The notes beneath the pieces are model-generated. The model worked only from the letters and a program-made list of their open reading frames with translations. It did no database searches and had not been told where the DNA came from. DNA of 64,000 nt from Candidatus Altiarchaeota archaeon (lineage in GTDB: Archaea; Altiarchaeota; Altiarchaeia; IMC4; SCGC-AAA252-I15), in assembly GCA_041306075.1 (NCBI GenBank), contig JBFYKH010000007.1, positions 8,821 through 72,820 on the forward strand, written 5' to 3'. Shown here one piece after another: positions 5,236-58,627 of this stretch. A program made the translations under genes and the position numbers. The first letter of the stretch is position 1. Each line of letters starts with the position of its first letter.

Positions 5236-5310
5236 GCTCCCGTAGTGTAGACCGGCCTATCATTCCGGACTTTCGATCCGGTGACTCGGGTTCAAATCCC
5301 GACGGGAGCA
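5236..5310 (+). tRNA. tRNA-Glu (anticodon UUC)
   Basis: Acceptor GCTCCCG/CGGGAGC, anticodon arm CCGGA-CTTTCGA-TCCGG (UUC), T-arm TCGGG-TTCAAAT-CCCGA, discriminator A; 75 nt. Confidence 0.85.
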
Positions 5311-16265: not shown

Positions 16266-16604
16266 ATGGAAAAGAAGTTGTTTTTTAGTGGATTTGTCCT
16301 GCTATTCTTGGCGGGACTGGTTGCAGCGCAGGCATCAGTTGCTCAGAGCGCTGTAGACGCGATTTGCGCGGTGCTGGAGAACATAACGTTTATGCTGTAT
16401 ATGATTACAGCAGCGGTCGGCATCGTGGTGATTGTGCTGCAGGGTATCAAGTGGGCTGGTTCAGCCGAGGACCCTGGAGCAAGGAAGTCTGCGAAGCAGG
16501 GCATCATCCATGCAGTCATTGGCATGATTATCGTGCTCTTGGCAGTATGGATTGTCGCGCTAGTATTCGGACAGGATGAGTGCGACGTCGCCGCCGTCCT
16601 ATAA
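16266..16604 (+). CDS. VirB2/TrbC-like pilin-sized membrane protein, paralogue 1
   Basis: 112 aa; signal peptide ending ...AAQASVA, then two hydrophobic helices separated by the short loop QGIKWAGSAEDPGARKSAKQGIIHAVIG; same architecture and motif as the 29011 and 29365 products. Confidence 0.6.
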   Translation: MEKKLFFSGFVLLFLAGLVAAQASVAQSAVDAICAVLENITFMLYMITAAVGIVVIVLQGIKWAGSAEDPGARKSAKQGIIHAVIGMIIVLLAVWIVALVFGQDECDVAAVL

Positions 16605-16610
16605 GCGGAT

Positions 16611-16666
16611 AATCTTTTTTGTGCCGGACCCGGTCCGGCACAACCTACTTTTTTCTTATTTTCTCA
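16611..16666 (+). terminator. Hairpin plus oligo-T terminator/attenuator after pilin-like gene 1
   Basis: T6, perfect hairpin GTGCCGGAC-CCG-GTCCGGCAC (16621-16641), then CTTTTTTCTTATTTTCTC. Confidence 0.5.
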
Positions 16667-16706
16667 ACAAAACGGCTTTTTTTCCTCATTTTACCATTAA
16701 CTTTTG

Positions 16707-19700
16707 ATGCTTGGGAGCCGTCTGTGCCATAGGCTGGCGACCGTCGTAGTAGTGTCCATACTACTCTCATACGCTGCCTCCTATGTTCTCGCAGGCAAGC
16801 CGGGGGAGCGCGGGCAGGAGGGCGCCGGCTGGTGGGACCAAGTCGGCTCCTGCGTCAAGCGCGAATCCACCTGGACGTATTTTATCCCCATTTACGGGCA
16901 GATTAAGGCATTTGGCACCCTGTTCTGTATCGGGAAGGTCACCGTAATATCGGTCGTCGTGAAGGGTTTATGGGCGATACTGAAGGACCTCATAATCGAA
17001 GGCTTCACCAAGCTATTGATACTGTTCCTGGGGTTCCTCGAGTCGGGGCTCACAGCGACCCCTGACTGGGACAGCGATGCCTACAACAATCTCTACGGCA
17101 TCGTGCTTACGATTATCACGCCGCTCCTCTTCGTGCAGATAATCGTTGTCGCAGGGTACCTGATGTTCTCGTCCATAGACCCCGGCCAGCGTTCCCGGGC
17201 GAAGACGATGCTCACCCGGCTCCTGATGTCGCTCGTCCTGGTCGGGATAGCCAAACCGGCCTACATACTGCTGTTTGACCTCATCAGCGGCCCAAACAGC
17301 ATAACCTCGGCAATATTCGACGCGACATATAACATAATCACGGGCGGGCCGCCCGGGGCTGGGGCGATAACCGCGATGGTCGCGATTTTCGCAGGCATAA
17401 TCGTGTTCGCCGTTTTCAGCGGCGTGGGCCTCACCCTCCTCGGGTGGGTGGTGGCGTATCTCCTCATAGTGGTGTTCATAGTGTACATCCGCTACTCCAT
17501 GATAGTCATGCTCTACATCATATTCCCCTTCACCATATTCCTCTACTACTTCGAGTACACCCGGAGCGTGGGCGGGGACTTCCTCATGAAGACGCTCATG
17601 TGGCTCATAATGGGCCCGGTGATGGCGCTTGTGGTCTCCGTGACTGTCATCTCGCTCGTCGTCTTCCTCGGGGGCGGCGACATGGGGGTGGCCCAAAACA
17701 TAGCGACGAGCCTCGAGGACGTGAAGGAAGACGGCGTGGTGGACGAGGGGGCGATAACCGCCATCGAAGGCCAGGTCAATCTCCCGGCCGGCAGTCTCCC
17801 TGCCGGCCAGGCCGAGCCGCCGTTCACCGAAGCCCTCCTGGCCAAGGTCATAGCATTGTTCATATTCCTCGGCGGCGTAGTGGCGTTGGTCGCCGTGCCG
17901 CTCGTCATGTCCTCGCTCATGCACTGGGTGGGCGGCGCAATGGCCGCGTCCGGGATGATGGGCATCTCGGCAGGCGGCCCCCTGGCGGAGCGTTGGAAGC
18001 AGCTCAGCCTCGTCACGGCCGGCGAGCTGATGATGGGGCGCGGGTCCCAGAGCCTCGTGTCCGCAGCCACGAACATATCCTACATGAACCGTGACGCGGT
18101 CATCGACGGGCAGGGGATGCTGCCCGGCCTCTTCGGCAGCGCGAAGACCGAGGCTTCCATGGCGTCGAAGGGTTCAGCCAGCAGGGGATTCATGGGCAAT
18201 CTTGCGGCCGCATTCAGCGACCACTCGTCGCCGGCCACTAAGGACTTCTATGACCGCTCAAGAGGCGCGGTTTACGGGACTCCCATGTCCGGCGGCCATC
18301 AGGGCGTGGAGTCCGGGATGTCGCAGCGGCCCCCCTTATCCGCCGGGAACAGGCCTCAGGACGGGTCATACGCCGCCGCAGGCGACGGCCGGGGTATGAG
18401 GGTGAATCCGGAGTACCTGAAGGACGACGGCCCCCCAGGTTCGCGTTCCCAGGGCGCTGGCATGCTGAATGCGCCGGCGTCTGAGCTGATTGGCGCGGAC
18501 GGGAAGCCGATGCCTACGTCGACCACCCATTACGACCAGCGTGCCGGGCAGGCCATGGTCACCTCAAGTGAGTCGCAATGGGGAGTGCTGCCGGCATTCA
18601 GGGTGATGGAGCGGATTGACAGCGTTTTCAAGGGCATGGGCGAGGTCAGGAAGGGCGTCTCCGCGGTGTTCAGGCAGAAGGGCAGGCGCCTTGAAGGCGT
18701 GAAGCTCGCCGGCCGCGGCGCCGGGAAGATTCTGGTTTCCGCCGTCCCCATCAGCCCGTTCATGCCTGTGAGGATGATGGGGCGGGTCATCTACACGCTC
18801 ACGCCCGTCCAGCTTCCTCCCGCATTGCAGCCCTACGGCTTCGCCATCGGCGGCGCGATGAAGGGCATCGGCTTAAGGCAGGTCTTCATGCGCACCAAGT
18901 GGGCTGAGCAGATGGGCGTCTACAGGAAAGCATACAAGAACCGGGTGGAGGACCTTGACAAGCTGGATGAAACCCATAAAACCGAGGTCGGGAAGCGGAA
19001 GGCGGGCGTAGACTACTCAAAGGAGGATGAGACGTACCGGCAGAAGCGCGGCAAGGTTCTCTCCGAGATGGGCCGGCTGGAGGACGGGGTGGTCAAGACC
19101 ATGGACCGGATGGGTTTCGGGAAGACTCCGTTCGCCGACGTGCTGCCCGAGAACCCCGACTACGTCTCCTACCTCAAGCATCTTGAGTTTCTGAAGAAGC
19201 AGCGCGACCAGACAGCGGAATCGAACCCGGCGGTTGCCGAACACAGCCTATACGACGCATACCTCCGGAAGTCCAGGGTCACCGAGAAGGACCACCTGAT
19301 GCAGCCGGCCTCGACGCTCTGGGAGAAGCACGAGAAGGGCGAGCTCAAGGGGAAGGATAAGGAGGAGTACGATAAGCTCGCGAAGTCTGCGCAGGCGTTA
19401 TCTGCGGTCCAGTTCGCCGACAACTCCAAGGACAAGTCGGGAGCGGCCGGAAGGCAGGAGAAGGCGCGTTTCATGGCCGCGGGCCTCATGAAGGCGATGG
19501 GCGTGGAGGATTCCATGGAGCAGCGGAGGTTCCTTGAAGCCCACACAGGCCTTCTGGAATTCGACAGGAATGGCGCGCTCACTAGGCAGAGGTATGTGCG
19601 CCTCGACGGCGCCATGGCGCAGGGCGCTCACAACAGGGAGTTCATATACCAGGAGACTTACGACAACAAGGGCGAGCCGCTCGTGAAGGCCGAGTCGGTG

Positions 19701-22019
19701 AACCTCCCCCTCCACAGGGACTCCGACGGCAACGTCTACGCGAGCCCGTATGACATGAAGTACCTGACCTCGTCGATGCGGCATGACGACTGGGCGAGGA
19801 ACAAGGCGCTGGCCAGCGGTTTTGCACTGAAGAACCCGATGCGGTTCACATTCAACTACTCCGACCAGACCGGCCGGTACGTCTCCGGCCAAGGCCAGGC
19901 GGATGCCGTGGCTGAGGTGGCATACGACCCGAAGGAGGGGGTTCTCCTCGGCCCTGACGGCGAACATGCCACCTTGGTCGGGCAGGGGGTGCAGACCCAC
20001 ATGGGCGACCGCGTACTCTTCGTCAGGACCAGCGAGTGGGCCGGGAAAATATATGCTCCCGAGGGGCGGGAGGCGACAGCCGAAGAGTCTAAGGCGGTGG
20101 CTGAAAAAATAAAGGCCGGGGAGAGAGTCGAAGGGTTCGTCGTCCAGGACTGGCTTGACAAGACGAAGTTCGTAGCCCCTACCGAGATGCGTCAGGGAGC
20201 TGACGGCGGAGTTCAATTCGGGTATAAGATATGGAGGCACTACGGCTACAACACCATCCCCACGGCCGACAAGAAGGGGCGCCCGGACATGTCGGCCCCG
20301 ACCCTCATAGGCCGCGACGGCATGGTGTCCGCCCTGAAGGGGATGCCGACCCACGAGGAGCTTAACGGGCCCATGACCCGGGAGATGAGGGGGAAGATGG
20401 AGGAAATCCTGCTCATCAACGGACGGAAACTGGACTACGGCACCCTCACCGACGATGCACTGCGGGAGGAGATGCGGAAGCTCAAGGACTCCAAGAACAA
20501 GGAGTTCGAGAAAGACTTAGACAAGGGGGCTGAGGGCCACAGGATGAAGGCCGGGGCTGAGGCGGCAAGTCGCCTCTCTGGCGCCGGCGTAGCCGGAATC
20601 AGCGCAGAGCAGGCGGCCGGCGTCGACGGCATGTTCGAAATTCACAAGGAGTACATAGCGGCTGCCAAGAACATAACCCTGGCTGGAACCAGATGGGGGT
20701 CATCGACGGGCCTGACCGATAGTGGGATACAGGCAATCAAGGCGTCAGTCCAGAAGACCGCGGCCGAGCACGGGGTCAGGGTTGCGAGCGTAAGCTTCTA
20801 CGACAGCGGCGACACGGCAAGCGACCCGAACCCTATGCTGGTCAGGTTCGAAGACGGGGCCCACCTTCAGGTGAATCTGGCATACATCGCGAATAAGGCC
20901 CGGGCGAGGATAGGCGTCCACGTCGCAGGGAGGGACAGGTCGATAGAGGCCATCAAAGCCGACAGGGCAAAGGCTATAGCGGCCATCGAAGGCGACAAAT
21001 CCAAGCCAAAAGCGGACCGGAAGAAAGCGATAGAGGCGGTTAACGACAAGAAAAAAGAGGAACTAGCGGCCGTAGATCGCGCATTCCACCAGGCAGTCTT
21101 CAAGGACATCGGCGACGGCCTTATACAAAAAGACCTGGATGAAGGGCTGGCTGATTTCCTGAAGCGGGCTGACGGCCACCTCAACCTCCACGAGCTGGCC
21201 GGCCACAACGCGGCGGAGAAGCATGTCGACGCGGTCATGAAGGCGACGAAGGAGAATTATGGCGCGGGGGGCAGGGGCTGGGCCCACAGATTGCTCATGT
21301 TCCGGATGACGAAGCGCAACATGACATTGGCCTCGAAGGAGGTCATAGCGGACGGCATAGTCCCCGACAAGATGACGATGCCGGACGGCACAGAAAAGGA
21401 TAATCCCTCGTTGATAAGGCTCTACGTCGGGGAAAAACAGGACGGCAGCGACGGCCTCATCGGCGAAATACGGAAGTACAAGCGCCTCGGCAGGCCGCAC
21501 CTGATAAACTTCGCGAGGGCTTCAGCCATCGCCAAATTCAGGGGCCTGAAGACGGATAATGGAGCCGATGTCTCCGCCATGTTCGACGAGGCATTGAAGG
21601 GGCAGAACTCGGAAGGAAAGGACCGGCTCACGAGCGGCCAGGCGAAAACATACGAGAAACTGAAGGCGTACTTCGCGGAGCAGGCCGGCCACGTTAAACG
21701 GGAACGCGACGCAATCTACAAAAAGACCGCCGAGGCGGGGAAGGCCAGGCAGGCGAAAATGAGCGGGGCCCAAAGCGGGCCGCAACAACAGAAGGCCCAG
21801 GACGGCCCGGTTGCGGGTGACCTCTCCCCGGAGAAGCGGCCTCAGGCGGAGGCGGGCAAGCGCGGCCAGATACCCCATCACGAGCCTCCTCACGACCACG
21901 ACGCCCCGGGAGCTGGCGGCGGGCACCATGGCGAGGGCCCTGCATCCGGCCCTGACGGGCAAGGGCCTGGAGACGGCGGAGACGGCGGCGGAGACGGCGG
22001 AGGAGACGGTGGAGACTGA
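16707..22019 (+). CDS. Giant membrane protein: N-terminal VirB6/TrbL-like polytopic domain (about 430 aa) plus about 1300-aa charged hydrophilic tail ending in a [DGG]n repeat
   Basis: 1771 aa (ATG at 16707; the track starts at TTG 16704); 8+ TM helices in the first 430 aa; long K/E/D/R-rich region; C-terminus ...HHEPPHDHDAPGAGGGHHGEGPASGPDGQGPGDGGDGGGDGGGDGGD. Confidence 0.55.
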   Translation: MLGSRLCHRLATVVVVSILLSYAASYVLAGKPGERGQEGAGWWDQVGSCVKRESTWTYFIPIYGQIKAFGTLFCIGKVTVISVVVKGLWAILKDLIIEGFTKLLILFLGFLESGLTATPDWDSDAYNNLYGIVLTIITPLLFVQIIVVAGYLMFSSIDPGQRSRAKTMLTRLLMSLVLVGIAKPAYILLFDLISGPNSITSAIFDATYNIITGGPPGAGAITAMVAIFAGIIVFAVFSGVGLTLLGWVVAYLLIVVFIVYIRYSMIVMLYIIFPFTIFLYYFEYTRSVGGDFLMKTLMWLIMGPVMALVVSVTVISLVVFLGGGDMGVAQNIATSLEDVKEDGVVDEGAITAIEGQVNLPAGSLPAGQAEPPFTEALLAKVIALFIFLGGVVALVAVPLVMSSLMHWVGGAMAASGMMGISAGGPLAERWKQLSLVTAGELMMGRGSQSLVSAATNISYMNRDAVIDGQGMLPGLFGSAKTEASMASKGSASRGFMGNLAAAFSDHSSPATKDFYDRSRGAVYGTPMSGGHQGVESGMSQRPPLSAGNRPQDGSYAAAGDGRGMRVNPEYLKDDGPPGSRSQGAGMLNAPASELIGADGKPMPTSTTHYDQRAGQAMVTSSESQWGVLPAFRVMERIDSVFKGMGEVRKGVSAVFRQKGRRLEGVKLAGRGAGKILVSAVPISPFMPVRMMGRVIYTLTPVQLPPALQPYGFAIGGAMKGIGLRQVFMRTKWAEQMGVYRKAYKNRVEDLDKLDETHKTEVGKRKAGVDYSKEDETYRQKRGKVLSEMGRLEDGVVKTMDRMGFGKTPFADVLPENPDYVSYLKHLEFLKKQRDQTAESNPAVAEHSLYDAYLRKSRVTEKDHLMQPASTLWEKHEKGELKGKDKEEYDKLAKSAQALSAVQFADNSKDKSGAAGRQEKARFMAAGLMKAMGVEDSMEQRRFLEAHTGLLEFDRNGALTRQRYVRLDGAMAQGAHNREFIYQETYDNKGEPLVKAESVNLPLHRDSDGNVYASPYDMKYLTSSMRHDDWARNKALASGFALKNPMRFTFNYSDQTGRYVSGQGQADAVAEVAYDPKEGVLLGPDGEHATLVGQGVQTHMGDRVLFVRTSEWAGKIYAPEGREATAEESKAVAEKIKAGERVEGFVVQDWLDKTKFVAPTEMRQGADGGVQFGYKIWRHYGYNTIPTADKKGRPDMSAPTLIGRDGMVSALKGMPTHEELNGPMTREMRGKMEEILLINGRKLDYGTLTDDALREEMRKLKDSKNKEFEKDLDKGAEGHRMKAGAEAASRLSGAGVAGISAEQAAGVDGMFEIHKEYIAAAKNITLAGTRWGSSTGLTDSGIQAIKASVQKTAAEHGVRVASVSFYDSGDTASDPNPMLVRFEDGAHLQVNLAYIANKARARIGVHVAGRDRSIEAIKADRAKAIAAIEGDKSKPKADRKKAIEAVNDKKKEELAAVDRAFHQAVFKDIGDGLIQKDLDEGLADFLKRADGHLNLHELAGHNAAEKHVDAVMKATKENYGAGGRGWAHRLLMFRMTKRNMTLASKEVIADGIVPDKMTMPDGTEKDNPSLIRLYVGEKQDGSDGLIGEIRKYKRLGRPHLINFARASAIAKFRGLKTDNGADVSAMFDEALKGQNSEGKDRLTSGQAKTYEKLKAYFAEQAGHVKRERDAIYKKTAEAGKARQAKMSGAQSGPQQQKAQDGPVAGDLSPEKRPQAEAGKRGQIPHHEPPHDHDAPGAGGGHHGEGPASGPDGQGPGDGGDGGGDGGGDGGD

Positions 22020-22058: not shown

Positions 22059-22562
22059 ATGGCTGAATACACCGACCTGGACCTGGAAGTGATAAAGAAC
22101 ATGAAGGAGGAGTGCATCCAAGAGGTGAAGGCAAACGCAGTGGACGACCTGTACTACTTCATCGTAGAACACAAGCACGGGAAGGGCGCGAGGGACCCGA
22201 TGATTCCGGTCGACTGGGACCTGGTGTTCAAGGAGAACCAGTGCCCCGAATGCAAGGATATAATCAGCCTCAGGGAGTTGACCTACGTCTGCGACAAGTG
22301 CGGCCTCAAGATACCCGTCAGGATGTACGATCTGGCATCGGAGGAATACTCCTCCTGGGTGAAGATACACGACGATGGCGTATCCCTGGCGGAGCGGATG
22401 CGGAAGGCCGGTTACTCCGATGAGCGCACGACCGCACTGTACGAGGATGCTGAGAGGCAGGCTTTCAGGGAGATAGAGTCCTTGAAAACGGAGGATGCGG
22501 GCAAATCCCGGAGGGGCGCCAGGATAGGGCCTTCATCCCGGGGGAGGGGCGGTGAAAGCTAA
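22059..22562 (+). CDS. Cytoplasmic zinc-ribbon protein (operon member)
   Basis: 167 aa; CPECK...CDKCG; GGAGGA RBS; overlaps the next gene by 11 nt. Confidence 0.5.
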   Translation: MAEYTDLDLEVIKNMKEECIQEVKANAVDDLYYFIVEHKHGKGARDPMIPVDWDLVFKENQCPECKDIISLRELTYVCDKCGLKIPVRMYDLASEEYSSWVKIHDDGVSLAERMRKAGYSDERTTALYEDAERQAFREIESLKTEDAGKSRRGARIGPSSRGRGGES

Positions 22563-24582
22563 GGCATTTGTCGCGCTCGTCCTGGTTTCGGCGCTAGCAT
22601 TCGCACTGGTCTCGGCGCAGAGCGACCGGGCAAGGCAGGGCACGTCCTGGATGAAAGAGCTCCTCCGCTCGCCCATGGAGATAATGGCGAAAACGTACAT
22701 CGAGCACACGCTGGGCTCCGTGGTCCAGGCATTGACCAACAACCCCACATTCTACTGCATTCCGGGGGACCCCACCTGCGCCGTCACCCCTGCGGGCATA
22801 GACCTGCTCATGAACAAGTGGATACACCTCCTCGTGCCTTTCTACATCGTCGCGATGCTGTTCACGGCCCTCTTCTTCCTCCTGAAGGCCGGCACGCCCC
22901 GCGGGCGGGCCAGGGCCAGGAGCATGGCGGTGAAACTCATATTCGGCATGGCCCTCGTCGCCCTCTCCCCCGTCATATACCAGACCCTCCTTGAGACCTC
23001 CGTGGTGCTGGTGAATTTCTTCCTCACGGGATACGCCACCGAACTGAACCTTGGGCTCATGACGGTACCCATCGACGCGCAGATATTCCCCCCGCTCGGG
23101 CAGGATGAGATAAACAACATGACGTGGGCGCTCGACAACACGGGCCTCACGATGTCGTGGATATTCATGTACGTCGCCTGCGGCACCCTCATACTCGGCA
23201 ACATCGTGCTCTGGTTCAGGAACATGATGGTCTATTTCTACGGCGTCTTCTTCCCGGTGATAATGTTCCTGTACACGTTCGAGGTGACCAAGCCCCAGGG
23301 CGAGAAATGGATAAACGGCTCCCTCAAGTGGATATTCGCCCCGGTTCTGCAGGCCATGCTCCTGGCGTTCACGGTGCAGGTAGCCAACAACATAAGCATG
23401 TGGAACTTCTCGGGGACTGTCGGCTCGATCGTGCTGACGTTCCTGAGCAACTCCCTGACCGGGATGATAATACTCGCAGGCATATCGGGGTTCATCATGG
23501 GGCCTATGATAGTCGGGCAGGCCATGAGCTGGTTCGGGGACGCAGTATCGTCCGTGGGCCTCGGCACAGGCAACCAGTGGATGGTGAGCATCGGCAACCT
23601 CCTTGCGGGCGGAGGCTCCGGATCGGTGCTCCAGGCCGAGGCGGAGTACGCCAGGGCGTCGTCTTACGAGCGCTACCGGACCATGATGACCGACCGCAGC
23701 ACGCCCGGGACCGCGACTCTCCGCCAGCCACAGGGCGCGTCGGGCCAGGCCCCGTCAATCGGCTCCCCGGGCCAACACTACGCCGCAAGCGGCGACAGCG
23801 CGCCGTCCGGCGGCCAATCCGCAGCCGGCCGCGGCGGCATGTTCGAGTCCTCAACACCTACGGCACAGCTCAGAAGCGCTTTGTCGTACGCCCCGGCCAG
23901 TGATGCTGGCGCCGGACAGTCGACGGGGGCGCCCGGCAACGAGTCTGCTGGCAGCCAACAGGACACATACTCCGGGACCCTGAGCGGCACCCAGACCGGC
24001 TCCCAGCCGCGCCAGCATCAGTCCTACTCGGGCAGCCCGTCCTCAGAGGATAGAGCAGCTAGTGGCTTCAGCCCGGAGGAGCTGAAGGGGGAGCTTGACC
24101 AGAGTTCAGCCAATGACGGCGGCACCCGCTCGGGAGCCGACGCAGCCGGGGATTCATATGCGGCATCCTCGTTCGGGGCGCTGATAAACGACGAGCTTAA
24201 GAAGGAAAAAACGTCCGAGACGATGAGGGCCCTGGCCACAGGAAAGCCCGGTATCAGCGTGCCCCGGGGGGAGGAAGTGGAGGTGCGCACGGGCTCGGCA
24301 GGGGGCATACCGTCAATCAGGACGCCGAGGACGCCGACAGCAGGCTCAAGGGGCATGGGCGCGCAGCCTACGGAGGATGAGGAGATGGCCAGGCTCGCAG
24401 GCATAGCGGCCGACAAGGAGCGGGAGCTGACCGGCCGGCAAATCGAACAGAAGCAGAAGATGGAGGGGATGCAGGCCGACCAGGTGCAGAGGGACGCCGG
24501 CAGAAGGCAGGCGGAAACGGACGGCAAAGCCGCTGAGAAGAAGGAGGCTGCGAAGCGCAGGAACGTGGACCGCGAGCGATGA
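22552..24582 (+). CDS. VirB6/TrbL-like polytopic membrane protein with long disordered S/G/T/Q-rich and K/E-rich C-terminal tail
   Basis: 676 aa; GTG start after GGAGG; signal peptide MKAKAFVALVLVSALAFALVSAQS, extracytoplasmic segment, 6-7 TM helices, low-complexity tail. Confidence 0.55.
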   Translation: MKAKAFVALVLVSALAFALVSAQSDRARQGTSWMKELLRSPMEIMAKTYIEHTLGSVVQALTNNPTFYCIPGDPTCAVTPAGIDLLMNKWIHLLVPFYIVAMLFTALFFLLKAGTPRGRARARSMAVKLIFGMALVALSPVIYQTLLETSVVLVNFFLTGYATELNLGLMTVPIDAQIFPPLGQDEINNMTWALDNTGLTMSWIFMYVACGTLILGNIVLWFRNMMVYFYGVFFPVIMFLYTFEVTKPQGEKWINGSLKWIFAPVLQAMLLAFTVQVANNISMWNFSGTVGSIVLTFLSNSLTGMIILAGISGFIMGPMIVGQAMSWFGDAVSSVGLGTGNQWMVSIGNLLAGGGSGSVLQAEAEYARASSYERYRTMMTDRSTPGTATLRQPQGASGQAPSIGSPGQHYAASGDSAPSGGQSAAGRGGMFESSTPTAQLRSALSYAPASDAGAGQSTGAPGNESAGSQQDTYSGTLSGTQTGSQPRQHQSYSGSPSSEDRAASGFSPEELKGELDQSSANDGGTRSGADAAGDSYAASSFGALINDELKKEKTSETMRALATGKPGISVPRGEEVEVRTGSAGGIPSIRTPRTPTAGSRGMGAQPTEDEEMARLAGIAADKERELTGRQIEQKQKMEGMQADQVQRDAGRRQAETDGKAAEKKEAAKRRNVDRER

Positions 24583-25583
24583 AAGACGACAAGGGCGGGC
24601 GCAGGCTCCAAGAGGAGATAGAGAAGACCGACCAGGAGCTGAGGAAGCTCGACGATAAGGCGGAGGAGCGGGAGGGGAGGAAGCTCGCCGTCGAGGAGGA
24701 CCTGCAGACCAAGTCCAGGATACTCAAGCGGAAGCTGATGGAACCCGCCCAGGCATCGGGCGCGGCTCCCGGGAAGAAGTCCGAGGAAAAGCCCCTCAGG
24801 GCCGAATCCCCGGAGACCCTGCTCAAGGAAGCCGTCCTGCGCCACCAGAACTCCCGGCTGGAAGAAAGGCGCGGAAGACGCGCCCAAATGACGACCGACG
24901 CCAGGGCTAGGATGCGCATAACGTTGGGGGTGGAGTCCGCCATCAACGAATCCATGGAACGCGACCTCCGCGGCCTGGAGGAAACGTCCGACGGCCGTCT
25001 GAAGCGTATACGGGAGCTGAGCGCCAGACGCGCGGGCGGTGGCGGTTCAGCCCAGGAATCGGCCGAGCTGAGGCGCCTGGAGGACAATGAGGCCGACAGA
25101 TACTACCTCAGGGAGCGTCTCCTCAGCCGCATCCGCCTAGAAGAGCTCGGGGAATACGGCTGGGTGAGGCCGATAGGGGACGGGATGCTCGGCATCAAGC
25201 CGTACACCGTCCTGACGCAGTACGACCGGCTGAGCCCGTCGAACAAGCGGGGCGTGAGGTGGCAGTCGGACTCCCTGATGATGCGATTCCAGAACGCAAT
25301 CGTCGGCCACTATGCGCCGAAGAAGGCTTCGTTCTCCTGGCTTCACGAGAAGACCCTCAAGGGCTTCGAGACCCAGTTCGACGACATAAACGAGGAGATA
25401 TACTCCGACAAGAAGTGGGCGGAGACGGTGCGCAAGGGACAGGCGCGGCTGGAGGACATGGAGGAGGAGCTTAGGGGATACGACAATTTCACCGTCGAGG
25501 AGGAGCGGAAGATAAAGAAGCTCTTCAGCGACTACATGAAGAAGCAGGTGGAATTGGGCAAGGAGATAGAATACAATCCCTGA
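24579..25583 (+). CDS. Charged coiled-coil protein (operon member; VirB8/VirB10-like role unknown)
   Basis: 334 aa; start overlaps the upstream stop (ATGA); highly charged E/R/K-rich helical sequence. Confidence 0.45.
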   Translation: MKDDKGGRRLQEEIEKTDQELRKLDDKAEEREGRKLAVEEDLQTKSRILKRKLMEPAQASGAAPGKKSEEKPLRAESPETLLKEAVLRHQNSRLEERRGRRAQMTTDARARMRITLGVESAINESMERDLRGLEETSDGRLKRIRELSARRAGGGGSAQESAELRRLEDNEADRYYLRERLLSRIRLEELGEYGWVRPIGDGMLGIKPYTVLTQYDRLSPSNKRGVRWQSDSLMMRFQNAIVGHYAPKKASFSWLHEKTLKGFETQFDDINEEIYSDKKWAETVRKGQARLEDMEEELRGYDNFTVEEERKIKKLFSDYMKKQVELGKEIEYNP

Positions 25584-25627: not shown

Positions 25628-26536
25628 ATGCCATACGCCATACCCGCTAACATCAGGTACGAGGAGCGGCTCGTAGGCCCGCTGACTATAAAGCAGTCGC
25701 TCTACCTCGGCGCATGCCTTATGGTCGCATGGTTCATATACCAGTCGCCGGAGCTTCCGCCGCCAACCAACGTGGTGGTCGCGCTCCTAGTGGCGGTGAT
25801 AGGGATAGGTTTCGCATTCTTCAACCTGGACGTCTGGCTGACGAACTACATCACCTTCCTCGGACTCACGAAGAAGAGCTCCTGGATTTCGCCCGCGGCG
25901 AGGAAGCTGATGGGCATCAAGTCCATCCGCACGGCATCCATCTACTTCCAGGACAACAAGGTCGTGGGCGTCGTGAAGGTGAAGCCCATCAACTTCGGCG
26001 TCCTGGCGGAGCAGGACAAGGACACGGTCATCTACGGATTCCTGGAGTTCCTGAACTCCCTGAACTTCCCGGTGCAGATAGTCATGCGCAGCGTGAACCT
26101 GGACCTGGAGGACTATCTCCGCCACCTGAAACGGCGGATAGTGCAGCGCGACGACAAGGTGGCGCTCGCCTACTACGAGCACTTCTCGGAGTACATGAGG
26201 AGCTACATAAAGGTGAACAAGATAAACGACAGGCACTTCTACGTCGTCGTCCCCGGCCAGAAGAAGAGGTCGGAGAAGGAGACGATAGACTACCTCGACA
26301 CCCAGTGCAACGAGATAATGGGCCGGCTGTCGCTGTCCGGGATAGTCTCGGAGCGGATGAACGACCGGCAGCTCCTGAACCTGTACAAGTCATATTTCAC
26401 GGACAGCTTCGAGCTCTACGACAGCTACATAAGCCCCATAACCATGTACCGGAAGATGTGGAAGGAGGCGCCGAAGCCTGTCAAGGAGATGAGGGGGGGC
26501 CGGGGGGATGAGCCCCAGGGGGCGGGTGAAGTCTAA
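25628..26536 (+). CDS. Membrane-anchored protein: VirB3-like 2-TM N-terminus plus a domain resembling the N-terminal domain of VirB4/TrbE ATPases
   Basis: 302 aa; two TM helices at residues about 25-75; ...SIYFQDNKVVGVVKVKPINFGVLAEQDKDTVIYGFLEFLNSLNFPVQIVMRS... as in the VirB4 N-domain; 3' end overlaps the next ORF in a G7 tract. Confidence 0.5.
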   Translation: MPYAIPANIRYEERLVGPLTIKQSLYLGACLMVAWFIYQSPELPPPTNVVVALLVAVIGIGFAFFNLDVWLTNYITFLGLTKKSSWISPAARKLMGIKSIRTASIYFQDNKVVGVVKVKPINFGVLAEQDKDTVIYGFLEFLNSLNFPVQIVMRSVNLDLEDYLRHLKRRIVQRDDKVALAYYEHFSEYMRSYIKVNKINDRHFYVVVPGQKKRSEKETIDYLDTQCNEIMGRLSLSGIVSERMNDRQLLNLYKSYFTDSFELYDSYISPITMYRKMWKEAPKPVKEMRGGRGDEPQGAGEV

Positions 26537-28811
26537 GATGGCATTCGGGTTCGGAGGGTCGAAGGCGAAGGAGAAGACCGAGGCAGAGTCGTATACGGAG
26601 TATGAGGACCGTCTCATAGAATACCTGACCTCGCCGTCCACCATCAACATCAAGCCGTCGGTGATAGAGATAAACAAGCTCCATCAGGTGATATGCGCCA
26701 TCAACTATCCGCGTCTCGTGGACCCGGGCTGGCTGACCCGGCTCATAGAGATGAACCTGGACTTCGACCTTGCCATACACATCAGCCCCTACAAGATAGA
26801 CACCACCATCAAGCTCCTCGAGGCGGAGATAAAAAAGCAGAAGACGGACCTGTATGCCCTCGAGACGGAGGGCAAGATAGTCCCGCAGGCCCTGATACAG
26901 CAGCACCAGGACACGATGGCGCTCCTGCAGCTCGTCCAGGAAGGCACGGAGAAGATGTTCGACATGTCGCTCTACCTAGATGCCAAGGCATTCAACAAGG
27001 AGGACATGGAGCGGATAAGCAAGCAGATAAGGGACACCATGAACAGCATCATGATAATCCCGAAGATACCCTCGTACCAGATGTACAAGGCCCTTCGGAG
27101 CGTCCTGCCGCTCGGCGTCGACGAGCTGCAGGTGACGAGGAACATCACAAGCTCAGCCGCGGCCGCCTGCTTCCCGTTCGCCATCACTTCGCTTGAGCAG
27201 CACGCGACCGGCATCCTAATAGGGTTCAACGAATACAACAGCATCCCCATCATAATCGACCCGTTCCAGCTGTCCAACCCCAACATACTGGTGCTCGGCA
27301 CCTCGGGCGGCGGGAAGAGCTACTCGATAAAGCTGATACTCATGAGGGAGTTCATGGAGGGCGTCTCCATCAACATCATCGACCCGCAGGCGGAGTACAC
27401 GGACCTTGTGAGGACCTTCAACGGCGAGATAATCAGGATAGCCCCGGACTCGGACAGCGTCATCAACCCGTTCGACCTGATGGACCAGACGTTCGACGAG
27501 AAGAAGCTATCCCTCCTCGCATTCTTCAGGTGCCTCCTCGGGGAGCTCACGGAGCCGCAGAGGGCGATACTAGACGAGACCATAGACCGCACATACGAGG
27601 AGAAGGGCATAAACAAGGACTCCAAGACCTGGAGCCGCCAGCCGCCCCTCCTCGAGGACCTGTACAACGAGGTGCTCCCGCTCACGAAGTCCCAGAAGGA
27701 GATAATCTACGGCCCCGCGATGGCCATCGTGAACCGCCTCAAGAGCTACGTCTTCGGGCCGATGAGGTTCCTGAACCAGCACACGAGGATAAACATCTCC
27801 AACCGGATGATAAGCTTCGACATCAAGGACTCGCCCGACATCGGCAAGGGCACCATCATGTTCCTGCTCCTCGAGTACGTGTACACCCAGATGAAGAAGT
27901 CGAAGACCAGGAAGATACTCGTCATCGACGAGGCCTGGACGGTCCTTTCGGCAGGCGAGCAGGCCGAGTACGTGCTCCGTCTCGTCAAGACGTGCAGGAA
28001 GTTCAACCTGGCGCTCATCATGATAACCCAGGACGTGGAGGACGTCCTCGTCTCCCGGGCCGGCAGGGCGGTTCTGACGAACACGGCCACGAAGATACTC
28101 CTCAAGCAGGACACCTCCATACTTGACCAGATAGTAGAGCGCTTCAACCTCAACCAGGCGGAGCGGCGATTCCTCCAGATTTCCACGATGGGCCGCGCCC
28201 TCCTGATAGCCGAGACCACGAGAGTCCCCATATACGTGCAGGCGTCCCCGGAGGAGCATAGGATAATAACGACCCGTCCCGACGAGCTCATAAACCGCCG
28301 GGAGGTGAAGCGTCCGGAGGGGGAGGACCTGGTTAAGGAGTTCGACATAAACAAGGTCGTCCAGCGGAAGGAGGACCTGGACGACGACCAGATACAGGCG
28401 CTCGGGCAGAGGGACTTCGGAGAGGTGCGCGTCAAGAACCTGAGCGGCGAGTCGGAGCTGTACCTGATAAAGAACGAGACCGAGGACACGGACGAGCACT
28501 TCGTCATGCAGCAGCTGATATTCAACGAGGTCAGGAGGTACACAGACAAGGTCCTGATACACCACACCCGGCTGCCCGACATCACGTTCGAGACCCGCAC
28601 CGGCAAGATGGTCGCAATCGAGATCGAGGCGGACGTGGGCCTCAAGAAGGGCATAGACAACATGCAGGACAAGCTCCCGCTGATGCAGAAGTACGACGAC
28701 TACTTCTACGTGGTCTCCAACCCGGCGCTTAAGAGGGACTACGGCAGCAAGTTCGGGGACATGCTGGCGCGGGAGGAGGTCCAGCAGAGGATTGCGACCT
28801 ATTTCGTGTGA
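26508..28811 (+). CDS. VirB4/TrbE/TraC-family (CedB-like) secretion ATPase with extra C-terminal domain of about 190 aa
   Basis: 767 aa; Walker A ILVLGTSGGGKSYSI, Walker B KILVIDEAWTV, ...LALIMITQ...; C-terminal extension ...PDITFETRTGKMVAIEIEADVGLKKG... Confidence 0.8.
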   Translation: MSPRGRVKSKMAFGFGGSKAKEKTEAESYTEYEDRLIEYLTSPSTINIKPSVIEINKLHQVICAINYPRLVDPGWLTRLIEMNLDFDLAIHISPYKIDTTIKLLEAEIKKQKTDLYALETEGKIVPQALIQQHQDTMALLQLVQEGTEKMFDMSLYLDAKAFNKEDMERISKQIRDTMNSIMIIPKIPSYQMYKALRSVLPLGVDELQVTRNITSSAAAACFPFAITSLEQHATGILIGFNEYNSIPIIIDPFQLSNPNILVLGTSGGGKSYSIKLILMREFMEGVSINIIDPQAEYTDLVRTFNGEIIRIAPDSDSVINPFDLMDQTFDEKKLSLLAFFRCLLGELTEPQRAILDETIDRTYEEKGINKDSKTWSRQPPLLEDLYNEVLPLTKSQKEIIYGPAMAIVNRLKSYVFGPMRFLNQHTRINISNRMISFDIKDSPDIGKGTIMFLLLEYVYTQMKKSKTRKILVIDEAWTVLSAGEQAEYVLRLVKTCRKFNLALIMITQDVEDVLVSRAGRAVLTNTATKILLKQDTSILDQIVERFNLNQAERRFLQISTMGRALLIAETTRVPIYVQASPEEHRIITTRPDELINRREVKRPEGEDLVKEFDINKVVQRKEDLDDDQIQALGQRDFGEVRVKNLSGESELYLIKNETEDTDEHFVMQQLIFNEVRRYTDKVLIHHTRLPDITFETRTGKMVAIEIEADVGLKKGIDNMQDKLPLMQKYDDYFYVVSNPALKRDYGSKFGDMLAREEVQQRIATYFV

Positions 28812-28851: not shown

Positions 28852-29007
28852 ATGGTGCCAATCACCAGGGACAACCGCTTGTGCACGCACCGTGTCGGCA
28901 ACAAATGCGGAAACCAGAAGGTCGGAAACGCCCCTGTCGTGAACGACAGCCTCCAGTCCAGGTGGTACTGCAGCAACTGTCCCTACTACTTCAAGGCGTC
29001 AGGCTGA
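28852..29007 (+). CDS. Small Cys-rich (zinc-finger-like) protein, 51 aa
   Basis: Below the track cutoff: MVPITRDNRLCTHRVGNKCGNQKVGNAPVVNDSLQSRWYCSNCPYYFKASG*; fills the gap between the ATPase and the pilin genes. Confidence 0.35.
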   Translation: MVPITRDNRLCTHRVGNKCGNQKVGNAPVVNDSLQSRWYCSNCPYYFKASG

Positions 29008-29010
29008 AAC

Positions 29011-29328
29011 ATGGCCCCCATAAGCGTCATGCTTGCGCGCCATGCAGCAGCCTTCATGCTGGCGTTCGCCCTGGCGGGGTTCGCCCAGGCCCAGTGCTAC
29101 GAGCCCTTGGGCTCCGACCTGATGAAACCCGTAAAGAATATCATAGACTTCCTGGTGGTGATAGCCTACCCCATCGGATTCTTCATGATAGTCTACATGG
29201 GGGTAAAATGGATAATCTCCGAGGGCCCCGAAGACCGGGAGAACGCCAGGCGCGGGGTCATCTACGTGATAATAGGCCTGATACTCCTCAGGTCCGCGTT
29301 CTATCTGGTCACATACCTCCTGTGCTAG
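29011..29328 (+). CDS. VirB2/TrbC-like pilin-sized membrane protein, paralogue 2
   Basis: 105 aa; signal peptide ...AGFAQAQ; motif MGVKWIISEGPEDRENARRGVIYVIIGLILL between two hydrophobic helices. Confidence 0.6.
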   Translation: MAPISVMLARHAAAFMLAFALAGFAQAQCYEPLGSDLMKPVKNIIDFLVVIAYPIGFFMIVYMGVKWIISEGPEDRENARRGVIYVIIGLILLRSAFYLVTYLLC

Positions 29329-29364
29329 GCTCGGATTAATAAGCATAAAGGCGTATTTGCTACC

Positions 29365-29688
29365 ATGGCATCGCCAAGGTTAATCCTAGCGGCCGTCCTG
29401 ATAGTCTCTCTCCTGTCGATGGCGGCTTCCGCTCAGACCCCTCTCAGCTGGGTCGTCGGCCTGAAGAGGGTGGCGTTCGCGCTCGGGTGGATAATGATGG
29501 TCTTCATGGGCGTTAAATGGATTGTCGCGGACAGCGCCAATGAGAGGGCGGAGGCGAAGAAGGGGATGATATACATCGTCATCGGCCTCCTGATCGTGGC
29601 GAGCGTTTCAAGCCTGCTCCAGATGTACTGCGACGTGGTCGCCTCGTCCGGGGTGGCGGGCTTCACCTGCACGGCGGGGTCCTACTAG
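29365..29688 (+). CDS. VirB2/TrbC-like pilin-sized membrane protein, paralogue 3
   Basis: 107 aa; signal peptide ...SMAASAQT; motif MGVKWIVADSANERAEAKKGMIYIVIGLLIV; C-terminal Cys pair. Confidence 0.6.
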   Translation: MASPRLILAAVLIVSLLSMAASAQTPLSWVVGLKRVAFALGWIMMVFMGVKWIVADSANERAEAKKGMIYIVIGLLIVASVSSLLQMYCDVVASSGVAGFTCTAGSY

Positions 29689-58552: not shown

Positions 58553-58627
58553 TGGTCCCATCGAGATTTGAACTCGAGACCTTCCGATTATCAGTCGGAC
58601 GCTCTAACCAGTCTGAGCCATGGGACC
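58553..58627 (-). tRNA. tRNA-Ile (anticodon GAU)
   Basis: Minus strand: GGTCCCA-TG-GCTC-AGACTGGTTA-GAGC-G-TCCGA-CTGATAA-TCGGA-AGGTC-TCGAG-TTCAAAT-CTCGA-TGGGACC-A; perfect cloverleaf. Confidence 0.85.

Follow-up and report, generated by a model that had tools for sequence, protein, structure and literature searches.

The giant open reading frame and its relatives

We analysed a 64-kb window (the whole 64,000-nucleotide stretch of contig JBFYKH010000007.1, from a Candidatus Altiarchaeota archaeon) that carries a gene cluster resembling a type IV secretion system (T4SS). The largest member of the cluster is a forward-strand open reading frame (ORF) whose product, referred to here as the giant, joins an N-terminal polytopic membrane domain to a very long hydrophilic tail. 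This single ORF starts at a TTG at 16704 or at an ATG at 16707, ends with its stop codon at 22019, and encodes 1771 or 1770 amino acids (aa), respectively. The first-pass annotation of this DNA had read it in the same way (1771 aa), and the C-terminal sequence cited there, PHHEPPHDHDAPGAGGGHHGEGPASGPDGQGPGDGGDGGGDGGGDGGD, is found verbatim in the translation. The features of the giant and of the neighbouring genes are collected in Table 1.

Table 1. Features of the giant and of the surrounding cluster. Positions are those of the window; residues of the giant are counted from the ATG.
Feature	Positions	Strand	Residues or length	Remarks
Giant ORF	16707-22019	+	1770 aa	Stop included; collinear homologues
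Polytopic membrane domain, VirB6-position	16707-17981	+	1-425	~9-10 transmembrane (TM) helices; hydropathy and alignment with paralogues
Pilin-like helical hairpin within membrane domain	17025-17297	+	107-197	TM3, basic loop SIDPGQRSRAK, TM4
Gly/Ala/Ser-rich linker	17982-18617	+	~426-637	Low complexity, poorly conserved, gappy alignment
Block B	18618-18995	+	~638-763	Helical, partly hydrophobic module; AlphaFold helices
Alpha-helical domain (block C)	19014-19541	+	~770-945	AlphaFold helices, pLDDT mostly 75-90
Beta-rich domain (end of block C and block D)	19554-20291	+	~950-1195	AlphaFold strands
Helical region	20298-20771	+	1198-1355	One helix of ~44 residues
Putative gluzincin-type metallopeptidase module	20781-21386	+	~1359-1560	Secondary structure and alignments
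K/A/E-rich helical insertion	20898-21140	+	~1398-1478	Between VNLA strand and HExxGH helix
HELAGH	21189-21206	+	1495-1500	HExxGH variant of zinc-binding motif
EVIAD	21339-21353	+	1545-1549	Candidate third zinc ligand E1545, and Asp
C-terminal tail	21765-22016	+	1687-1770	Q/P/G-rich, then His-rich, then (DGG)n
VirB2/TrbC-like pilin 1	16266-16604	+	112 aa	Signal peptide and two-helix hairpin; T4SS_pilin 2.8e-8, TrbC 1e-6
GC-rich perfect inverted repeat gtgccggacccggtccggcac (arms gtgccggac/ccggtccggcac), then T-rich run	16621-16666	+		Read from sequence
Zn-ribbon protein	22059-22562	+	167 aa	Soluble, CxxC...CxxC; weak Zn-ribbon matches; conserved cluster member
Membrane-domain paralogue	22552-24582	+	676 aa	Membrane domain, then G/S/Q-rich linker and K/E/R-rich tail
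Charged soluble protein	24579-25583	+	334 aa	No family match; conserved cluster member
VirB3 (PrgI) and N-part of VirB4	25628-26536	+	302 aa	PrgI 9.1e-7; NF045975 VirB4_plasma positions 74-277
VirB4 ATPase, remainder	26508-28811	+	767 aa	NF045971 CD1110-type 9.2e-87; NF045975 (VirB4 of Mycoplasma integrative and conjugative elements, ICE) positions 278-893; TraG P-loop, AAA_10
VirB2-like pilin 2	29011-29328	+	105 aa
VirB2-like pilin 3	29365-29688	+	107 aa	T4SS_pilin 1.9e-8

Relatives of the giant were sought in several collections. A word-indexed search of 5.8 billion proteins returned two relatives only, P0001 (2261 aa) and P0002 (978 aa); the window giant has no self-match in this collection, and its genome is apparently not in it. 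A scan of one genome per species yielded five loci, of which the two long ones are L002 and L003, and a metagenome scan yielded one short fragment, L007. Nothing matched when the membrane core was compared by tblastn (E<=1) with 72,556 plasmids. A HMMER search of 1.84 billion representatives (clusters at 50% identity) with a profile of giant residues 1-1050 recovered 278 representatives at E<=1e-3, of which 141 reached E<=1e-10, with profile positions ~118-305 in common.

Homologues that are collinear with the giant occur in Altiarchaeota metagenome-assembled genomes (MAGs) and in metagenomes, and range from 1627 to 2261 aa. P0001 (35% identity) is collinear with giant residues 45-1468 in BLASTP and to ~1700 in a MAFFT alignment, and P0003 (1639 aa) aligns to residues 38-1677. 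L002 and L003, both from Candidatus Altiarchaeales or Altiarchaeota MAGs, each carry one ORF at the corresponding place, of 1665 aa in L002 and of 1627 aa in L003. The annotation had allowed that the ORF might be two fused genes, revealed by an internal stop in relatives; because the relatives are collinear single ORFs, we conclude that the giant is a real gene and no fusion artefact.

The membrane domain

Kyte-Doolittle analysis places hydrophobic segments of the giant at residues 6-32, 66-114, 128-160, 171-196, 215-285, 292-330 and 371-411. They accommodate ~9-10 hydrophobic helices within ~residues 9-411, in line with the polytopic N-domain of 430 aa that had been proposed earlier. Sixteen positions of this domain are invariant between the giant and its paralogues, namely P139, P159, R162, A165, L172, Y186, R262, F273, P274, Y280, F282, T285, G289, W299, A307 and A411.

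Part of the domain is related to the pilins of the same cluster. In a profile-profile comparison (hhalign), the hairpin at residues 107-197 aligned with the cluster pilins over 85 columns at a probability of 80% (E 1.4e-5), and Pfam family PF18895 (T4SS_pilin) matched two further giants, P0026 and P0025, at the residues equivalent to this hairpin. These profile matches show that the N-domain contains a VirB2-pilin-like hairpin.

We also scanned against Pfam 85 shorter relatives of the membrane domain, which had been retrieved with the giant's profile. PF18895 was matched by 24 of the 85 and the TrbL/VirB6 family by 8 (best E 3.1e-6). The relative P0126 matched positions 76-211 of the TrbL/VirB6 family (PF04610) at its residues 146-289, which overlap the stretch matched by the giant profile (83-271). 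By such intermediate homology, by its pilin-like hairpin and by its position between the pilin immediately upstream and VirB3/VirB4 downstream, the N-domain may be called VirB6-like, as it had been in the first-pass annotation; a direct match to the Pfam TrbL family is missing even at E<=10. We use VirB6-like with moderate confidence as a working class suggested by sequence, distinct from proven Pfam membership. With at least 278 representative clusters, the membrane domain constitutes a family that the Pfam TrbL model largely misses. In profile searches of the PDB, alignments of the membrane domain gave low-complexity or chance matches only, and so did the tail alignment.

Some of the shorter relatives carry additional domains, including TPR, the DNA-binding HHH_5 or HhH-GPD, VWA, SAM and SNAP-like domains, and because these are so diverse, the VirB6-type domain appears to be a platform for varied fused modules. 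Ten long relatives (P0031, P0032, P0040, P0046 and P0059, and P0055, P0093, P0106, P0116 and P0134) lack both block B, described below, and an HExxH motif. Their C-termini bear other conserved motifs, LLEDYMGIGPRPSEFYHGIGPE... or ...GSGEQLEEMLEDRDE, and these differences point to further subfamilies with other tails.

The tail is a conserved multi-domain module

After the last TM helix, the giant extends for ~1340 residues. The highly charged character ascribed to this tail earlier is confirmed: from ~600 to 1700 it is rich in K/R and in D/E, each at ~10-20 per 100 aa, with lower charge at 1001-1100 and 1301-1400. An AlphaFold model of residues 590-1725, based on a 9-sequence alignment, reached a mean predicted local distance difference test score (pLDDT) of 71.7 and a predicted template modelling score (pTM) of 0.65, so that the tail is, by prediction, structured and not low-complexity. 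The end of the linker (590-637) falls below a pLDDT of 50. In the distal part of the model, three strands are followed by long helices (~1359-1686), and disorder is predicted from 1687 onward.

The structured part of ~1130 residues is a conserved multi-domain module whose last part bears the invariant signature HExx(G)H ... ExxxD. It is shared, with a common order of blocks, by a giant subfamily of ~28-30 representatives of 1200-2260 aa, and the full giant architecture is common to ~28 representative clusters at 50% identity. Block B (~638-763) was found in 30 representatives, block C (780-1050) in 14, block D (1050-1290) in nine, block E (1290-1420) in ten and block F (1470-1620) in eight. 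The motif P-x-SPF-x-P-x-R..GR....LPP....G..M.G...RQ of block B, with invariant R and G columns, is a signature of the subfamily, and the beta-rich domain contains the invariant residues N999, L1000, D1005, Y1011 and D1028. P0002 has a genuine stop after block C, which indicates that shorter versions of the giant exist. A transglycosylase within the beta-rich domain (19887-19970, aa ~1111-1138) was considered and dismissed; the PF06737 match spans 28 residues (E 2.6e-4) and scores 22 bits against a cut-off of 27, and was judged to be due to chance.

The extreme C-terminus is of a different nature. The (DGG)n run is a 12-nt tandem repeat of ~3 copies (21974-22014), and residues 1687-1725, where the His-rich stretch begins, are predicted to be disordered (pLDDT <35); the model ends at 1725. 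The His-rich/(DGG)n end is missing in 45 long relatives, and P0014 alone has a vaguely similar G/D/H-rich end. The first-pass annotation had suggested that this end could bind divalent metal or mediate surface attachment. A functional focus on it is not supported given its lack of conservation and the predicted disorder at its start; as a conserved metal-binding or attachment module it is rejected as a family feature for want of conservation. We see in it a low-complexity appendage specific to the lineage, with disorder in at least part of it, rather than the functional core. It could possibly bind metal, which would however be no property of the family.

A gluzincin-type signature near the end of the tail

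The first-pass annotation had seen no recognisable catalytic motif in the tail, and here our analysis departs from it: an invariant HExx(G)H ... ExxxD signature runs across the giant subfamily. The 9-sequence alignment of the tail has only 17 invariant columns, and four of them are H1495, E1496, H1500 and E1545. The first motif takes the form HExxGH in the window protein, P0003, P0006 and P0014, and HExxH in P0001, P0004/L002, P0007/L003, P0008, P0009 and P0044. It is present in nearly every giant, in one copy, ~150-250 residues before the C-terminus. Within the last 450 residues it was found in 23 of 28 giants, compared with 0.74 expected from shuffled sequences, and in four of the remaining five it lies further upstream, which brings the signature to 27 of 28.

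The second motif follows the first His after 50 residues in the window protein and after 36-79 in the relatives, where it reads E-[VMFI]-x-[AS]-[DNQ], less clearly so in the most distant giants. In the predicted layout of the module, three strands, the last of which ends in xLxVNLA (1385-1390), are followed by a helix, the active-site helix and a 'Glu helix'; the strand x-L-x-V-N-L-A upstream of HExx(G)H is conserved, and AlphaFold places HExx(G)H and ExxxD in consecutive helices after the three strands. The K/A/E-rich insertion is seen in the alignment row of the window protein alone. Between close and distant giants, the block that contains the peptidase motif aligned in hhalign with a probability of 96.4% (E 1.4e-9).

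In well-studied gluzincins, the ExxxD of the 'Glu helix' reads EAISD (thermolysin) or ENIAD (neprilysin). HExxGH is the hallmark of family M49 (dipeptidyl peptidase III, DPP III), some members of which have HExxH instead (PMC5805324, PMC9820243), so that M49 is a precedent for both variants in one active peptidase family. The giants resemble M49 in combining HExxGH and HExxH within one family and in the Glu of E-x-x-A-D 36-79 residues downstream, and gluzincins more generally in the beta-strand upstream of the motif and in the placement of both motifs in predicted helices. They differ from M49/DPP III in that no sequence or fold match was found, in the much smaller size of the domain and in its embedding in a membrane-anchored T4SS protein. 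Judged from these motifs, the module at the end of the tail is probably a gluzincin-type zinc metallopeptidase.

Alternatively, HExx(G)H...E could be a non-proteolytic metal site, structural or nucleic-acid-related; the tail would then act in the cytoplasm as a scaffold or as a substrate receptor, in place of the missing coupling protein. We regard this as unlikely. It would agree with the lack of a peptidase family or zincin fold match in any search; among these, a PHROGs search with the tail region and four relatives gave no meaningful match, while fold searches with the whole 1136-residue model were dominated by helical-bundle matches and are thus uninformative rather than negative. It would also agree with the gene content, as no relaxase or coupling-protein (T4CP) family was matched among the ORFs scanned in the 64-kb window, and with the HhH (HHH_5, HhH-GPD), TPR and VWA domains of the shorter relatives, which suggest that such tails often bind DNA or partners. 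A purely structural site would, however, hardly explain why the first His is immediately followed by an invariant Glu of catalytic type, nor would it explain the Glu-x-x-x-Asp helix at gluzincin-like spacing or the conserved edge-strand-like xVNLA that precedes them.

A HUH-relaxase reading of PHELxH was discarded, as the motif has H-x3/4-H spacing and is predicted to lie on a helix, whereas that reading would call for H-hydrophobic-H on a strand. Two giants carry a second HExxH in a C-terminal extension: P0001 has HEELH at 1810, and P0006 has HEKLH at 1345; the extra extensions span ~1700-2261 and ~1100-2011, respectively, and their second-HExxH regions align with each other.

Sequence divergence and tail topology

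The genes of the cluster have diverged to very different degrees. Compared with their counterparts at L002 and L003 (for pilin 1, at L002-L005), identity falls from 81-83% for the 767-aa part of VirB4 through 72-74% for VirB3-VirB4N, 68-73% for pilin 1 and 56-66% for the flanking genes to 43-45% for the 676-aa paralogue, 38-39% for the 334-aa protein, 33-36% for the Zn-ribbon protein and 28-29% for the giant. By this comparison the giant is the most divergent and fastest-evolving gene of the cluster, which fits a role in recognition, in conflict or at the surface, or relaxed constraint on its linkers.

On which side of the membrane the tail lies was assessed from loop charges under a nine-helix model of the membrane domain. 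Loops 114-127, 195-218 and 322-374 (K+R/D+E of 0/3, 0/1 and 1/9) are assigned to the outside, and loops 154-171 and 284-296 (4/1 and 2/1) to the inside. Since acidic loops alternate with basic ones according to the positive-inside rule, the tail would be cytoplasmic; we lean weakly towards this placement, at little better than even odds.

The tail may instead be extracellular and serve as an adhesin or enzyme. Its zinc peptidase would then cut a proteinaceous envelope, such as the S-layer of the cell itself or of a partner, and clear the way for the pilus or channel, and the tail would also take part in partner recognition. By analogy, the giant might be an archaeal counterpart of the VirB1/CwlT/PrgK wall hydrolases. 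We consider this alternative rather improbable, if worth keeping in view. The rapid divergence of the giant would find an explanation in partner recognition, and its 28-29% identity, next to 81-83% for VirB4 and 56-64% for the flanks, is typical of surface or recognition proteins. In bacteria, the C-terminal extensions of Anaplasma VirB6-3/-4 are surface-exposed and that of F TraG has a part in mating-pair functions (PMC7648143). The cluster shows no further hydrolase candidate, TM counting over the family slightly favours an outside tail, and the tail would come to lie outside if 219-237 is not a true TM helix. Against an outside location stand the loop charges, the K/R-richness of the tail and the demanding export of 1300 residues beyond the last TM helix. 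Furthermore, the tail has no Cys, N-glycosylation sequons are not in excess (four N-x-S/T in the whole protein versus ~3 by chance, our own estimate from composition), and no adhesin, Ig-like or S-layer-binding domain was detected.

It has also been proposed for the extended VirB6 C-termini of Rickettsiales that they are released into the target cell (PMC7648143). By analogy, the tail or its distal part could be cargo: once freed from the membrane anchor, possibly through the action of its own peptidase, it would pass through the machine into another cell and act there as an effector or toxin. A fast-evolving giant with a long flexible linker between anchor and tail would suit this role, as would the modular, variable tail, which lacks blocks D-F in P0002 and carries an extra extension with a second HExxH in P0001 and P0006. 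However, we identified neither a cleavage site nor a secretion signal, and no immunity-like gene among the neighbours. Blocks B-F are collinear and keep their order in distant giants, a pattern that suits a structural component of the machine better than it suits a polymorphic toxin. We regard delivery of the tail as very unlikely.

The surrounding gene cluster

The archaeal host assumed by the first-pass annotation is confirmed by aEF-2, aEF-1alpha, a threonyl-tRNA synthetase (ThrRS) with the archaea-specific editing domain and PolD (DP1/DP2), all encoded in the window together with FtsY. The cluster is flanked by core genes shared with L002 and L003, among them a D-aminoacyl-tRNA deacylase (56-64% identical). 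Its synteny, including a split of VirB4, is kept on the 107-kb contig of P0001 and at L002 and L003, which makes four loci in all. From the sequence side, this synteny and the 81-83% identity of VirB4 are what suggests an Altiarchaeota-like host. The window also carries tRNA-Glu(TTC) at 5236-5310 (+) and tRNA-Ile(GAT) at 58553-58627 (-), and the cluster adjoins neither.

The GC-rich hairpin lies directly 3' of pilin 1 and ahead of the giant. Its sequence resembles a terminator or attenuator, and it could attenuate read-through into the giant. Further downstream, the 676-aa ORF aligns with giant residues 134-314 (BLASTP E 2e-8) and shares with it the motifs P-x-x-R-x-R-A-[KR] and FP...FLY.FE.T[RK]. 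The giant's membrane domain thus has a paralogue in this ORF, and the locus contains two VirB6-type proteins. There are three pilin paralogues, each with a Cys near its C-terminal end. Family scans recognised no other hydrolase candidate and no VirB8-like gene in the cluster.

The two VirB4 halves overlap by 29 nucleotides. A frameshift was ruled out, as the 302+767 split recurs, as 304+757, 305+768 and 302+760, in three related loci (the P0001 contig, L002 and L003) and is thus a conserved feature. The larger part ends in a C-terminal extension of ~180 aa (28275-28808, +) with the pattern ...PDITFE...VAIEIEAD...KK. A PD-(D/E)xK-like nuclease in this extension was entertained as a motif impression, to which Pfam (E<=10) and PDB sequences lend no support. 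Likewise, the ORF at 28881-29339 (+, 152 aa) was rejected as a gene; it is R/P-rich and overlaps the clear pilin 2 gene in another frame.

Comparison with known systems

To our knowledge, the T4SS-like machines of archaea have been characterised in detail only for Ced and Ted of Thermoproteota and for a few plasmids. The window cluster resembles CedA/TedA systems (PMC9905601) in being archaeal, chromosomal and relaxase-less, and in encoding the channel protein next to a VirB2-like pilin and together with a VirB4-like ATPase. In CedA/CedA1, as in VirB6/VirB2, the N-part of the channel protein is related to the pilin (PMC9905601), and the giant is likewise a polytopic protein whose N-part is homologous to the pilins of its own cluster (the hhalign match given above). 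A signal peptide has been reported for TedC, and pilin 1 has, in our own reading, a signal-peptide-like N-terminus. The differences are considerable. CedA and TedA have 6-7 TM helices and lack a 1300-residue tail, and their hosts are Thermoproteota. The VirB4 of the window matches the CedB model at 2.9e-15 with 55.9 bits, against a cut-off of 700, and the CD1110-type model with 292 bits, and is thus no CedB/TedB orthologue. Moreover, the VirB4 of the window is split, with its N-part joined to VirB3, and the cluster includes three pilins as well as a second VirB6-like paralogue. Ced and Ted serve in DNA import, a role that would be conjectural for the window cluster.

The first-pass annotation had compared the giant with extended VirB6 proteins, aptly so (PMC7648143), as both consist of a VirB6-type domain and a large hydrophilic extension. 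The giant shares with Rickettsiales VirB6-3/-4 and RvhB6 and with F/SXT TraG (PMC7648143, PMC2653234) the combination of a polytopic domain with a very large hydrophilic C-terminal extension, as well as several VirB6 paralogues per locus and fast-evolving extensions. Their hosts, in contrast, are diderm, and their extensions consist largely of repeats in which no catalytic motif is known, whereas the giant has conserved, ordered domains ending in HExx(G)H...ExxxD. Searches of PDB sequences and Pfam found no sequence similarity between the giant's extension and those of bacterial VirB6 proteins.

Closer parallels for the ATPase are found in the MPF-FATA class and in the T4SS of Patescibacteria (PMC12102498), which share with the window cluster the CD1110 and Mycoplasma ICE VirB4 types and a PrgI-type VirB3. 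The Patescibacteria systems further have PF18895-type pilins, lack a relaxase in most genomes and are chromosomally widespread in one lineage (PMC12102498). The survey of Patescibacteria found no VirB3-VirB4 fusions (PMC12102498), whereas VirB3 is here fused to the N-part of VirB4. In distinction to MPF-FATA systems with VirB6 of the PrgH/TcpH/ConG type, the giant is archaeal and unmatched by VirB6-type Pfam and NCBIfam models, and no cell-wall hydrolase or VirB8-like gene was recognised in the window cluster.

Interpretation

As a whole, we propose, with a probability of roughly 60%, that the giant is an extended VirB6-type channel and platform subunit of a domesticated, relaxase-less T4SS or pilus machine, whose tail tethers a probable zinc peptidase. 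In this reading the machine is chromosomally fixed and of the monoderm (MPF-FATA) type, with a Ced/Ted-like organisation and an Altiarchaeota-like host. The N-domain, the 676-aa paralogue and the split VirB3-VirB4 would together form the membrane translocon and the base on which pili are assembled from the three VirB2-like pilins. The tail module would hold the gluzincin-type zinc peptidase at the machine. If the tail is cytoplasmic, to which we lean only slightly, it may process or recruit cargo or machine components in a system without a coupling protein.

Several observations weigh against this proposal. The matches of the shorter relatives to PF04610 (TrbL/VirB6) are few and lie near or below the gathering score, and this family had no match, even at E<=10, in the giant, its N-domain or the L002/L003 orthologues. 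The N-domain was likewise unmatched in searches of NCBIfam and PDB sequences. AlphaFold modelling of residues 1-470 from a 3-sequence alignment gave a pLDDT of 44, a model unusable for comparison with VirB6, and because of this low value the fold comparison with solved VirB6 (R388 TrwI) failed. For the tail, there is no match to a peptidase family (Pfam, NCBIfam, PHROGs) or to a PDB sequence, and the peptidase assignment is motif-based, as family models, PDB sequences and fold searches give it no support. The window motif is HExxGH rather than the canonical HExxH, and an insertion of ~80 residues splits the strand from the helix. P0002 ends ahead of blocks D-F, and some relatives can thus do without the peptidase module. 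Regarding topology, crude TM counting after the basic loop placed the tail outside in 38 relatives and inside in 29, and the 676-aa paralogue has no hydrophobic segment aligned to giant helix 219-237, which weakens the cytoplasmic lean. The function of all family members, finally, is read from sequence. The alternatives set out above differ from our proposal mainly in the location and role of the tail; the identity of the gene is undisputed.

More speculatively, and with a probability well below one half, a hitherto undescribed protein family may exist in Altiarchaeota and other uncultivated lineages, made up of giant channel proteins of archaeal T4SS whose VirB6-type translocon and zinc metallopeptidase form a single polypeptide chain. 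Extended VirB6 proteins (PMC7648143) and archaeal VirB6-like proteins (PMC9905601) are already known. The giant subfamily with its gluzincin-type module, the second VirB6 paralogue, the split VirB3-VirB4 and the presence of such a cluster in Altiarchaeota appear to be new. Our literature search found no paper that names Altiarchaeota together with VirB4, and found Altiarchaeota together with 'type IV secretion' in three papers, in passing only.

These findings document, for an Altiarchaeota-like lineage, a chromosomal cluster of MPF-FATA-like type that is conserved and is unusual for its two VirB6-type paralogues, its conserved split VirB3-VirB4 and a giant whose tail probably includes a zinc peptidase and evolves much faster than the other parts of the machine. 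If such a family exists, its peptidase would be an envelope-cutting enzyme, or one that processes cargo or itself, in a chromosomally domesticated exchange machine, a mechanism without a described counterpart in bacterial or crenarchaeal systems. A genuine peptidase would make it possible to test how a monoderm or archaeal T4SS copes with an envelope made of protein, or processes its cargo, without a VirB1-type hydrolase, a coupling protein or a relaxase.

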